This document shows, one piece after another, positions 10,443 to 16,762 of a stretch of 64,000 nucleotides of DNA (its first letter is position 1; each line of letters opens with the position of its first letter). The stretch is from an uncultured bacterium. GTDB taxonomy: Bacteria > Chlamydiota > Chlamydiia > Chlamydiales > FEN-1388. The position numbers and the translations under genes are program-made. The notes under the pieces are model-generated. The model was not told where the DNA came from. It saw only the letters and a list, made by a program, of their open reading frames with translations, and did no database searches. Location of the stretch: NCBI GenBank assembly GCA_964512205.1, contig CAZEGK010000001.1, positions 68,770-132,769 of the forward strand, read 5' to 3'.

Positions 10443-13400
10443 ATGAATTGCAATTTGATTTTTCTCGTCTTTCTGGCCTATTCCACTAGCCTCTTTGCTG
10501 AAGAGGGACAAGATGCGCTTTCGGCACAGCCTATTTGCATCGCAAGAGAAGCCGCGCCTTGCGCCTTTGTCAATAATGTACATGTTGTAGATGGCGGGCT
10601 CTATCTGAGCATGAACCACATGAAGGTTCCCGGCCACGTACCGCTTGACCTTGTACAGTACTATAACAACAAATCTAACTACAGCTCCTGGTTTGGAACA
10701 GGGATGACCCTCAACTACTGCTTTTGGATCCAAGGGATTGGAGATGTCAAAAGTGGCCATGATTATGACGGCGTCATGGCAGAGTCTTACGGCGGATCGA
10801 TCATCTCCTGCATTGCAAAAGGGATCGAGGAGGGCTCGCAAAAGTTCTATCTTGATCCGGCAGTTATTCATAAAGGCTTTACAAACTGCGGAGCAGGTTC
10901 GATTAGTGCAAGAACAAACCTTAAAAATTGTTACATAAAAGAAAAAATTGTCGACGATGAAAACGAATACTATAAATGGACCTGCTATTTACCCGACGGC
11001 ACAACGCGCTACTACAAACGAGCAGAAGATCGAGATGATCTTGTCGTAGTAAAAGAAGAGATAAGACGAAACCTTACTCGACTTGAGTTTGACCACGCAA
11101 AACGAGATTTTAAGCAAGATTCTATCAGAGAAATCACAGCAAAAGGCCGCTCTACATTCAATAGGCTTGAATTTGCTCGAAATAACAAAAAGCGAAAGGC
11201 AAAAGTAAAATCGTCCAATGGAAAAGTATGCCGCTTTTCTTCCTTCAAGAAATATGGGCGACACTACATAGAAAAAATCGAGTCTACAGACTCACCTACG
11301 TATGAATTTCGTTATACAAAAGCGGGTAAATACTACTCGATAAACAGGATAGAGCTTCCAGATGGAAGGTATTTAGAGCTCGACTATGATAAAGAGGCTC
11401 GAGTAGTTAAAGAAAAAGCGCCGGTCGGTAAAGATGGCGAGAAGAGAACGATCTACAGCTTTGACTACCATGATGACTATACGGTCGTCCATGATGCAAA
11501 TCAAAATAAAAAAATCTATCGCCATCACAACAACAGAATTTCTGATATCGAAGAATATAAGGGCCATACTCTCTATCGAGTAAAATCCTACTACTGGGGC
11601 AAAAAAGAGGGCCTATCGTGGGGAAAACAGCCTACAGGAAAAGAGGGAAACCTTCTTGGCTATGCAACGCTAAACCATGAAAAATGTGCTACTTTTCTTC
11701 GCTACTTTGACTACGATGACTATGGCAATATTGTTAGGGAAACCACTGCAGGCAACCTCTCAGGTAACTACCCATGGGCTTTTTGGGTCGATGATGAGGG
11801 AAGACCAAAAGATCAAAATGTCGAGCGCTATCAAAAATACTATACATATTCGAAAGATCATCTGCTTATCGGACAAAGCGAAGACTTTGGCCCCCGGATT
11901 GAGTATGAGTATAAGTCAGGAACTGACCTTGTCTCTGCAAAGTTTATCAAAGATAGCGACAAGATCGTAAAGAGAGAATTTTACACCTATGATGACAATG
12001 GCATTTTGATAGAAAAGACAATTGACGATGGCACAAGCCCAAACAAGTCAGAGCTTGCAGGCGTCTCGATGCGGCTTGTTACCAAGATAGTGCCAACTGT
12101 AATAGGACTTCCTCAGGATATCTATGAATATTATCTTGATCTGACAAGCAAAAACCTTGTTTCTCTTAAACAGACCCACTACAACTATAATAAAGCCGGA
12201 GAGGTAGTCGAGGAGGCGATATTTGATAGCGAAGGAACATACCGCTACTCTAGCTGGTACGAGTATGACCACAAGGGACGCCTTCATAAGAAAAAAGATC
12301 CCATAGGCCAAATCTACACCTATGTCTATGACAATAATGACAATAAAACATACGAGAAGAGAGAAGATGCCCAAGCGCATACTATCTACAAATATGATGC
12401 CGCCAATAGGTTAATAGACTCTACAGAGTATCACTACGATAATACAAAAATTGCCCAGCAGTTTGAGTATGACCTTATGGGCAATAAGATACGATCTTAT
12501 GACAGGTATGGAAACATAACGACCTATCACTACGATGAATGTAATAGGCTTATCGAAACGATACTCCCCAAAAAATCCTTTAGCGTAAAAAAAGAGTATG
12601 ACCTCTTTGACAATGTCTCTTCTGAAACAAACGAAAAGCACGCGAAGACCTCTACTGAATATACCGTGCGAAATAAACCCGCCAGAATCACCTATCCTGA
12701 TGCAAGCGTAGAGCGCTTTCAATATAACAAAAAAGGGACGCTCTTTAAGAAGTGGGATAAAAGCGGCACAAGATACATGTATCACTACGATAAATTCGAT
12801 AGGGTTACAAAAGAGTATGTCCATGATGCTGATGGAAATAAGCTTTTAGAGACTGAAAATTGCTATAATAGCTTCCACCTCCTCTCATCAAAAAACCCGC
12901 GAGGTCACACCACCTACTTTCGCTACGATGGTGCAGGACGGCTTATCGAAGAGCTTTTGGAGACCCCAGAAAACTATACAAAAAAATGCTTTAGCTATGA
13001 CAGCCTAGGAAGACTCTCTTCTACCAAACACTACTATGGAAAGGAGCGAGATACCTTTTATGAAGTAGCAGTTGAATATGACAATCTCGATCGCATCCTC
13101 TCAGAAAAGGAGCTCGATTCGACGGGAATATGCCATAGCGAAACAGTCTATGAATATAATGCAGATGGCATGCTGACCCGAAAAGAAAAAGCAGGGGTAG
13201 CCCTCATCAATCGCTATAACTCAAAGAAAGAGCTTATTGAAACGATCGATGAAGAGGGCTTTAGGGTAGAAATTAGCTACAATCACACCTTTACAAACCA
13301 CAAAGGGCAAAGAACGCTCCAAAAAGTGACAAGAGATGGCCTCAACAACCTTACGGAAGAGTATTTTGATGAGCTTGGCAGGTGTATCTCCATTTTGCGA

Positions 13401-16158: not shown

Positions 16159-16762
16159 ACTTTGGAAAATTACTCTTTTTACTGGATCTTTACTTTTCGT
16201 CATCTTACTTGTCGGAAAAGTATATGGGAGTGAGGCATCAGCAGATCCCGATTTTTGGCTTAAACTTGCACCACAGGCAACTAAGTCCACAGCTTCAATA
16301 AAGAACTTTATTAAGAGCTACGATAGCGGACGTTACTACTACATAGCTAGCGGCCCCTTCACTTATCTTCCTCCTGAAGCTAGCTACGGCATTTGGGTAC
16401 GTACACAAACTGAAGAATCAGTCCAAAGCGGAAGAGAAAAGGCAGTGAAATTTTTGCACGATTATGTCAAAGCGCTCCAGACAGATAAAGAAACAACCAA
16501 GTACTTTGAGTATCAATGCATTCAATACCCTAAAAAATATTCAGGCAAACTAAGCCTAAAGAATGTAGGCGTTCGAATTGCTTACTGGGATGAGCAGGTT
16601 GAGCGGCCAAAAGCCCCCTATCTTTCCGAAATAGACTTTTATGATAATACCTTCCGCTACTATGAAGCAGATCCAAAGACACAAGGGCTGAGGCTTATAC
16701 GAGAAGAATCCTACGAAAAGGCTATTGAACTACTCCAGACATCCCCTAAACCTCTTGAGTGA
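16142..16762 (+). CDS. candidate immunity-protein paralogue with N-terminal membrane anchor/signal
   Basis: Hydrophobic N-terminus MEIIGKLWKITLFTGSLLFVILLVGKVYG. The C-terminal IREESYEKAIELL matches FKESYEQALEHL of the preceding ORF. I took the start at 16142; the tool's ORF starts at 16118. Confidence 0.45.
   Translation: MEIIGKLWKITLFTGSLLFVILLVGKVYGSEASADPDFWLKLAPQATKSTASIKNFIKSYDSGRYYYIASGPFTYLPPEASYGIWVRTQTEESVQSGREKAVKFLHDYVKALQTDKETTKYFEYQCIQYPKKYSGKLSLKNVGVRIAYWDEQVERPKAPYLSEIDFYDNTFRYYEADPKTQGLRLIREESYEKAIELLQTSPKPLE

Follow-up and report, generated by a model that had tools for sequence, protein, structure and literature searches.

How can a Rhs toxin be delivered, and against whom would it be turned, when it begins with a Sec signal peptide and is encoded in a chlamydial genome with neither a type VI secretion system (T6SS) nor a Tc partner in view? 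This question is raised by a locus in the stretch of DNA analysed here (the window), 64,000 nucleotides from an uncultured bacterium of the Chlamydiota (GTDB lineage FEN-1388; assembly GCA_964512205.1, contig CAZEGK010000001.1, positions 68,770 to 132,769). The locus consists of a gene for a 1738-aa Rhs protein with YD repeats, followed by two small genes that are called immA and immB in the following (Table 1). An earlier account made from the letters alone, referred to below as the sequence-only reading, had described this arrangement, including the two downstream genes and the housekeeping genes on either side (der on one, SNF2 and ald on the other), and the same elements are found here. 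It is rather likely, in our view, that the locus is a three-gene chlamydial polymorphic-toxin module, in which a Rhs cocoon exported by Sec carries a hydrolase tip, an exported pair of proteins confers immunity, and the target is bacterial.

The open reading frame (ORF) of the Rhs protein cannot be extended upstream in frame, and a whole-protein search found an NCBI-derived protein (P0155) identical to its product. The predicted signal peptide reaches a mean Kyte-Doolittle hydropathy of 2.65 over 10 aa and has a small residue at position -1 (A19), the call being that of a hydrophobicity heuristic and not of a trained predictor; an equivalent hydrophobic N-terminus is present in 34 of the 39 full-length relatives. 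A lipoprotein was considered as well and rejected, since the cleavage site holds no Cys (no lipobox). Between the signal peptide and the DUF6531 plug there are only ~25 residues, and the plug is the sole match within aa 1-400 at E<=10. No PAAR, VgrG-binding or TcB-type domain was found in this region, so that a T6SS or Tc adaptor N-terminus was rejected, in agreement with the sequence-only reading. The shell behind the plug matches Pfam RHS_repeat (PF05593, E=3.9e-45, five stretches) and NCBIfam YD_repeat_2x (TIGR01643, E=1.6e-22), and in a PDB sequence search it matched the shells of solved Rhs, teneurin-like and TcC proteins; TEN_YD-shell is the precomputed Pfam annotation of P0155 and its relatives. 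The NHL, TTR and TIP families of the teneurin superfold were not detected in the Rhs protein, and TcB, SpvB and TcA gave no family match in the protein or in the window. The complete shell leads into a core that terminates, as had also been noticed before, at L1501 with the motif HFDLFGL (...NNPLSHFDLFGL; fuller stretch YVHNNPLSHFDLFGL), of the PxxxxDPxGL type. Its two aspartates, D1474 (14862-14864) and D1497 (14931-14933), lie 23 residues apart; they correspond to the catalytic pair of TcC/Rhs autoproteases, for which this spacing is canonical, and the core is predicted to cleave after L1501. With YD/RHS repeats, a core motif containing two aspartates and a variable tip, the protein has, as far as sequence can tell, features by which Rhs/YD polymorphic toxins are recognised.

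Family scans took in ORFs of at least 120 aa, that is all substantial non-nested ones, and matched no T6SS or Tc family among those of the 64-kb window, nor are T6SS/Tc genes present in the flanks of six related loci. The absence of such machinery from the window had been read as a puzzle, on the premise that Rhs toxins of diderm bacteria normally depend on it. This premise was too strong, since Rhs toxins with Sec signals ('T2SS', for type II secretion system) have already been catalogued, chlamydiae included, with Tox-REase-9, Ntox50 and other tips (Zhang et al., 2012; PMC3482391), and bacterial teneurin-like toxins, whose structures appeared in 2026, combine Sec signals and downstream immunity genes with "no obvious delivery machinery" (Raoelijaona et al.; PMC13018210). 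The puzzle of delivery is therefore real, but it belongs to the whole class of Sec-dependent YD-shell proteins and is not peculiar to this locus.

For the tip itself Pfam gave no match at E<=10, and word-indexed searches found no homologue with the tip alone and one protein with the tip profile. An exhaustive HMMER search gave 988 homologues at E<=1e-3; among the best 150 of them 28 are more than 1000 aa long, and many of the tips are placed at Rhs C-termini. Most of the full-length long homologues share the general build of the window protein and align with it collinearly at ~30% identity, and many other homologues are proteins of 400-700 aa without YD repeats. Invariant in 27-28 diverse tip homologues are N1553-G1554, D1590, S1633, D1681 and H1714. 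An AlphaFold2 model from the single tip sequence was unusable (pLDDT 33.8), so that an alignment-based model (pLDDT 90.8, pTM 0.88) was used instead, for which Foldseek returned 316 PDB matches at E<=1e-3, headed by the lid-less serine hydrolase XC6422, cutinases, PETases and acetyl-xylan esterases (E ~5e-6, TM ~0.45-0.55). Compared with PDB sequences, the tip profile yielded sub-significant cutinase matches only (E 0.04-0.4), which served solely as support for aligning the nucleophile elbow with the GYSQG of cutinase. The model indicates that the tip has an alpha/beta-hydrolase fold with a Ser-Asp-His triad in canonical order and an Sm-x-Ser-x-Sm elbow, and by fold and triad it resembles a serine hydrolase of the esterase/lipase/cutinase type.

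A connection to a known chlamydial family is made by the relatives of the tip, since 17 of 27 tip homologues match Pfam DUF687 (PF05095) at model positions ~37-167 (best E=9.8e-17). The window tip itself gives no score against this model at E<=10 and is without a transmembrane region. As the match runs through relatives and the triad is intact, the tip would be a catalytically intact (by sequence) relative of DUF687, and not a member of the family as defined. The proteins of DUF687, a family specific to Chlamydia that includes CT326 and CPn0066, are putative inclusion-membrane proteins (PMC3048545), and they are reported to be alpha/beta hydrolases whose catalytic residues have been lost and which end in a six-helix membrane bundle (PMC11878206). 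DUF2235 is absent from the families matched by the 27 tip homologues at E<=0.01. The tip family is unannotated by Pfam and may correspond to Tox-ABhydrolase-2 or -3 of Zhang et al. Among the homologues of 400-700 aa, dozens (P0022, P0028, P0033, P0059, P0083, P0097, P0124 and others) carry a hydrolase of the tip type at their C-terminus, while their N-terminus is acidic, has no signal peptide and contains a motif, W-[ND]-G-R, that recurs among them. One or two adjacent hydrophobic segments near residues 100-200 resemble those of chlamydial inclusion-membrane (Inc) proteins, and the Ser-Asp-His triad is kept in those that the alignment included.

The immA start codon lies 1 nt past the Rhs stop codon, and the reading frame of immB overlaps immA. 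Neither gene product has a Pfam, NCBIfam or meaningful PDB relative, also when profiles are used. A homologue of immA is found directly 3' of the toxin gene in 7 loci, which is every readable Rhs locus with a hydrolase tip, and toxin stop and immA start codons often overlap. Orthologues of immB follow immA in L001 (two copies), L007 and L010, L001 belonging to the nearest genome, a metagenome-assembled genome (MAG) that was the only related one obtained in a scan of genome collections. The two families align with each other (hhalign probability 96%, E=3.6e-9, 128 columns), and by this comparison immA and immB are paralogues within a single family of exported proteins that has no annotation. 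At the N-terminus nearly all its members have a signal peptide, a membrane anchor or a lipobox, such as LLGC in L010. Because conserved linkage, duplication and export signals occur together, the best reading of both is that of immunity proteins, probably located in the envelope. Lipase effectors of the Tle type with periplasmic Tli immunity proteins provide a precedent (bioRxiv 10.1101/2023.03.28.534661), and by analogy with them exported immunity would imply that the tip attacks a target accessible from the periplasm.

Two further observations concern these genes. The MAG contains a second immA/immB pair (L001 5617-6667) that is not accompanied by a toxin gene; its two proteins have clear signal peptides and share 37% and 54% identity with those of the first pair, and the window has one pair only. 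Immunity genes that lack a toxin are a typical feature of polymorphic toxin loci, and by its arrangement the second pair looks like such an orphan. In L007 the frame of a 60%-identical Rhs homologue is broken ~30 codons past the core motif (9915-10001), and gene calling assigns the hydrolase tip to a gene of its own, of 190 aa and with a GTG start; this would be either a pseudogenised toxin whose immunity genes were kept or a frameshift error of long reads.

If the protein belongs to a polymorphic family, relatives should be found that diverge at the core. Relatives with the same tip align end to end (P0156, P0157 and P0165, with 62%, 53% and 44% identity), and in P0159-P0164, P0167 and P0168 shell identity is 47-51% and similarity is lost between aa ~1501 and ~1528. 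The tails of these differently tipped sisters, which are 231-263 aa long, are unrelated and were assigned to EndoU (E=4e-11) and Tox-REase-9 (2.6e-31), matched Ntox37 and Ntox24 weakly, or stayed unassigned; farther relatives (36-38% identity) carry Ntox50 (5.8e-15) or EndoU tips, and an Imm53 gene lies 3' of one sister Rhs gene. Since sister proteins have unrelated tails past the core, the Rhs family is truly polymorphic, and the C-terminal module is variable in the way the sequence-only reading had supposed.

Whether the hydrolase tip is itself a recent arrival is a separate matter. Between the window and the MAG the secretin is 95%, Ald 94%, Der 93% and SNF2 85% identical, followed by the Rhs shell with 75-77%, immA/immB with 67-68% and the tip with 59%, and P0156 and P0157 show the same order of divergence. 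Within the hydrolase-tip sub-clade, tip identities of 59%, 47% and 36% correspond to shell identities of 75%, 64% and 55.5%. These values indicate that the tip has been inherited with its shell in this sub-clade but changes faster, and that no fresh swap has taken place. That the window genome recently acquired its tip by horizontal exchange was considered and rejected, because the tip is orthologous in the MAG, L007, L010 and P0156. The idea of a swapped tip thus holds for the exchange among sister Rhs proteins, but not inside the sub-clade, where tip and shell are co-inherited. The AT-richness of the post-core region, which had been judged by eye, was borne out by a sliding-window GC run: 14943-16762 is the lowest-GC 1800-nt stretch of the 64 kb (0.3 percentile, ~3 sd under the mean), with a GC of 0.374 for the tip (0.298 at third codon positions, GC3) and 0.367 for immA (GC3 0.283), compared with 0.421 for the shell (GC3 0.44) and 0.533 for the core. 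The DNA at 14643-14942 (aa 1401-1500) has a GC of 0.533 and a GC3 of 0.61 versus a GC3 of 0.30 in the tip, and this sharp compositional step coincides with the point at which the tips of the homologues switch.

The three genes are encountered as a unit in three genomic contexts. In the MAG the cassette is located at the same site as in the window, from der to RING-SNF2-ald, while in L007 the module sits after pheS and a glycosyltransferase gene and in L010 it adjoins a cytochrome oxidase operon. By this distribution the three-gene unit is an accessory module that is mobile over time. The proposal that it is an inserted accessory cassette can be kept with respect to the accessory nature, but the insertion itself is less clear: the MAG has the cassette at the same site, and no direct or inverted repeats and no mobility genes were found flanking it, the only internal DNA repeats being derived from the YD repeats, so that no recent insertion is shown. 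For an empty der-SNF2 interval, a metagenome scan with the SNF2 protein gave one irrelevant weak match. Related genomes contain several Rhs paralogues each, two of them within 10-20 kb of each other. In L004 a stand-alone Ntox50 fragment of 67 aa, possibly an orphan tip, lies between two Rhs paralogues.

Taken together as a mechanism, Sec would export the Rhs precursor to the periplasm, where the core aspartyl protease (D1474/D1497) would cut after L1501, which would leave the 27-kDa tip free inside the closed shell. The loaded shell would then be displayed on the cell or released, possibly through the type II secretion system that chlamydiae have conserved. The tip would hydrolyse an ester bond of the envelope from the periplasmic side, be it in membrane lipid, lipooligosaccharide or the acyl chains of lipoproteins, and immA and immB would neutralise it in the periplasm or on the membrane of the producer and its kin. 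The likeliest role would be antagonism among related chlamydiae or towards other bacteria that share the host cell or inclusion. Immunity-linked toxins do occur in the intracellular Simkania, Odyssella and Rickettsia (PMC3482391; PMC9111745).

Several points weigh against this mechanism. Every element from export and autocleavage to enzymatic activity, substrate and immunity is something that we infer, and the analysis covers 64 kb of the genome. We know of no mechanism that moves a Sec-exported shell of ~190 kDa across the outer membrane of a diderm and into another diderm cell. Moreover, the signal peptide of the Rhs protein is without a basic n-region, and the N-terminus of the window immA is only a short hydrophobic one (MINILLSLFSFF), which makes export of this protein more doubtful than export of its homologues. 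Finally, the hydrolase domain is found in many non-Rhs proteins that resemble type III-secreted Inc proteins, which makes a host lipid target plausible.

The last point is the basis of the rival that survives best, though we regard it as doubtful, namely that the protein is a host-directed effector. Sec and type II secretion would bring it to the inclusion lumen or to the inclusion or host membrane, the tip would attack host lipids, and the small proteins would shield the envelope of the producer during periplasmic passage. Such a role would fit the occurrence of the domain family in the DUF687 putative inclusion-membrane proteins (CT326, CPn0066 and others; PMC3048545) and in the Inc-like proteins of 400-700 aa, with their paired hydrophobic segments, missing signal peptide and retained triad; the adjoining, fast-evolving RING gene suggests a neighbourhood of host interaction, and several polymorphic-toxin domains of intracellular bacteria have been argued to be aimed at the host (Zhang et al., 2012; PMC3482391). 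However, effectors of this kind normally come without dedicated immunity genes, and a tip that is encapsulated should need no immunity during export. The immunity-like genes are linked to the toxin here, are duplicated and form a toxin-less pair in the MAG, which fits protection against the toxins of other strains, and the sister proteins carry nuclease tips, one of them with Imm53, such pairs being typical of interbacterial systems. The same argument from immunity genes has been made against a purely host-directed role of the toxins of Simkania, Odyssella and Rickettsia bellii (Zhang et al.; PMC3482391).

That the protein is instead an adhesin or a structural protein of the outer membrane, with a YD shell serving attachment or cell-cell contact and with the small genes as helpers of export or assembly, is unlikely. 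In its favour, a location in the outer membrane of chlamydiae was predicted for RHS-family proteins in 2009 (PMC2811131), bacterial teneurin-like proteins have been discussed as possible devices of cell-cell communication (PMC13018210), and the immA/immB family has no known fold relative. By contrast, the catalytic triad is intact in 27 diverse tip homologues, sister proteins exchange the tip for classic nuclease toxins, and tip and small genes outpace the shell in divergence, which fits an arms race and not an assembly factor. A conventional T6SS- or Tc-dependent Rhs protein with its partner machinery beyond the window is very improbable: the data are 64 kb of a genome of which one contig alone has 161,879 bp, and the best PDB sequence matches are indeed solved T6SS Rhs proteins (8h8a, 5e-24; 7q97, 1e-20), but the N-terminus has no PAAR, prePAAR, VgrG-binding or TcB-type domain and hardly any room for one before the plug, the signal peptide is common to the relatives, T6SS/Tc genes are missing from the window and from the flanks of the related loci, a protein with a cleavable Sec signal could not be loaded onto a T6SS spike in the cytoplasm, and chlamydiae have type II and type III secretion systems but are not known to have a T6SS.

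The reading as an antibacterial module can be carried further, although we consider the wider picture less likely than not. Environmental chlamydiae may use a family of Sec-exported Rhs cocoons, independent of any T6SS, as weapons against one another or against other symbionts of the same host cell. This would imply an undescribed route by which an encapsulated toxin leaves one diderm cell and enters the envelope of another. The tip may also have been recruited into type III-secreted proteins of the inclusion-membrane type, and it would live on, catalytically dead, as the DUF687 family (CT326 and others) of pathogenic Chlamydia.

Table 1. Coordinates of the Rhs cassette, its flanks and related loci (positions in the window, unless a locus is named).
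Feature	Position	Strand	Remarks
Rhs polymorphic toxin gene	10443..15659	+	1738 aa plus stop, ATG start; RHS_repeat, DUF6531, Rhs_assc_core and YD_repeat matches
Predicted Sec (SPI-type) signal peptide, aa 1-19	10443..10499	+	MNCNLIFLVFLAYSTSLFA; hydrophobic core, then EE
DUF6531 plug (PF20148), aa 44-97	10572..10733	+	E=1.1e-5 for the whole protein, 1.9e-6 for aa 1-400
YD/RHS-repeat shell, ~aa 98-1425	10734..14717	+	RHS_repeat and YD_repeat; collinear with relatives
Rhs-associated core, predicted aspartyl autoprotease, aa 1426-1501	14718..14945	+	TIGR03696, E=5.5e-22
Toxin tip, predicted lid-less alpha/beta serine hydrolase, aa 1502-1738	14946..15656	+	237 aa, 27 kDa
Tip residue Ser1633	15339-15341		SHSIG
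Tip residue Asp1681	15483-15485		
Tip residue His1714	15582-15584		
Tip oxyanion residues N1553-G1554			
immA, candidate immunity gene	15661..16158	+	165 aa; hydrophobic N-terminus; homologues directly 3' of Rhs-hydrolase genes elsewhere
immB, predicted exported immA paralogue	16118..16762	+	214 aa, or 206 aa from M at 16142; signal peptide/anchor MEIIGKLWKITLFTGSLLFVILLVGKVYG
der	8818-10290		flank of the Rhs cassette
RING, SNF2 and ald genes	16746-22035		other flank of the Rhs cassette
RING-finger gene	16746-17483	-	245 aa; zf-RING_2 match E=1e-5, 26.1 bits (cut-off 27.3, just missed)
Metal ABC permease fused to a C-terminal DtxR/MntR-type repressor	61135-62340	-	repressor at aa ~337-400
Rhs paralogue regions and stand-alone Ntox50 fragment in related genomes	L004 18354-18557 and 21133-23333; L009 1-5325 and 10001-15226; L005 1063-4632		
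immA homologue loci			L001 (related MAG), L003 (three tandem copies), L004, L005, L007, L010

The remainder of the window agrees with a chlamydial origin, as the sequence-only reading had assigned it. A FliN/SctQ-like gene, a Ser/Thr kinase gene (pkn5-like) and a secretin gene precede the cassette at 798-6039, which is the cdsQ-pkn5-cdsC order of chlamydial type III secretion. The window further contains hrcA-grpE-dnaK and a ytgA-D-like operon (60140-63961), the second permease of which is the permease-DtxR fusion, of the YtgC-YtgR type of Chlamydia, and one distant Rhs relative carries the label 'Chlamydiia bacterium'. The window genome is chlamydial. Downstream of the cassette the RING gene is convergent with immB, so that the ends of the two overlap, and its product, at the same place in the MAG, is 59% identical, compared with 85-95% for the neighbouring housekeeping genes; a eukaryote-like E3-ligase domain in a chlamydial genome makes this protein a candidate secreted host effector. 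On the other side, between the type III secretin and der (6186-8850), two hypothetical genes encode 479 aa on the plus and 411 aa on the minus strand. Searches with tblastn for both proteins in L002 and L001 found nothing, and in the MAG the secretin-der gap is ~170 nt (L002 7913-8083) and without these genes, which points to a lineage-specific insertion or deletion beside the Rhs cassette. Elsewhere, large ORFs without a family (743, 1389, 515 and 895 aa) lie among 29268-31280 (+), 41302-46984 (+), 25903-28134 (-) and 55421-58108 (+), and for a 670-aa ORF of the same set the sole match is one to Fic/DOC that stays below threshold (E=6e-4, 21 bits versus a 24-bit cut-off); all of these are possible lineage-specific effectors. 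Scans for promoter and terminator consensus sequences gave nothing above shuffled expectation.

At the level of components, three things are new: a family of hydrolase tips that is unannotated and linked to DUF687, a second unannotated family, of exported immunity-like proteins encoded by pairs of paralogues, and a well-resolved clade of chlamydial Rhs proteins whose tips can be exchanged. Antibacterial weapons are usually considered to be of little use to obligate intracellular bacteria. That chlamydiae have an intact Rhs toxin/immunity family which evolves fast and exchanges its tips argues for competition among intracellular bacteria as a real selective force. A 27-kDa esterase-like tip with two small exported proteins offers a tractable case for Sec-dependent delivery of YD shells without T6SS or Tc. 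Furthermore, the tip with its intact triad may help to explain the DUF687 proteins of Chlamydia trachomatis and C. pneumoniae, and both the tip and the immA/immB family are candidates for the catalogues of toxins and immunity proteins.

Among known systems, the WapA-type toxins of Bacillus subtilis and Streptococcus suis (PMC3482391; PMC12704120) resemble the cassette in the Sec signal that replaces a T6SS adaptor, the YD shell, the core, the variable C-terminal toxin that is displaced at the core motif and the immunity gene (here a candidate) directly downstream. By contrast, the window Rhs has no cell-wall-binding domain and belongs to a diderm of the obligately intracellular type, so that, unlike with WapA-type toxins, an outer membrane must be crossed, and the cassette has an unannotated hydrolase tip and an exported, paralogous pair of immunity candidates. 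The teneurin-like proteins (PDB 9pt5, 9ifo) have a Sec signal (SPI or SPII), a closed YD shell that encloses the cleaved toxin and a downstream immunity gene, to which the predicted features of the cassette correspond, and no delivery machine has been identified for them (PMC13018210). The window protein differs from them in being ~400-500 aa shorter, with no TTR, NHL or TIP detected, and their PDB entries match it in the core-proximal part only; Chlamydiota are not among the phyla in the figure legend of that study (PMC13018210). With the T6SS Rhs effectors (RhsA, RhsP, Tse5, Tse15 and Photorhabdus Rhs1) it has the plug, the shell, the predicted core aspartyl protease and a polymorphic tip, presumably encapsulated and with cognate immunity, in common, but not PAAR, prePAAR, the clade domain, VgrG linkage or nearby T6SS genes, and it has a signal peptide instead. 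Matches to the BC subunits of Tc toxins (TcdB2-TccC3 and YenC2) are limited to the core (aa ~1404-1504). Regarding the tip, the lipases Tle1-4 with their periplasmic Tli partners are similar in the alpha/beta-hydrolase fold, the GxSxG-like elbow and the exported partners, here immunity candidates, but there is no sequence-family match to them and the tip is carried in a Rhs shell and not by VgrG or Hcp. The DUF687 proteins (CT326 and CPn0066/0069/0381/0882) form a chlamydial family with a homologous alpha/beta-hydrolase domain, whereas the tip keeps its Ser-Asp-His triad and has no membrane domain. Finally, CRCT/CRCA of Rickettsia buchneri is also a toxin-antidote module of an obligate intracellular bacterium and has been read as a device of interbacterial antagonism with an uncertain secretion route (PMC9111745); it comprises another toxin domain, on a small remnant that stands alone and has no signal sequence. 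The window locus, by contrast, keeps an intact Rhs carrier.

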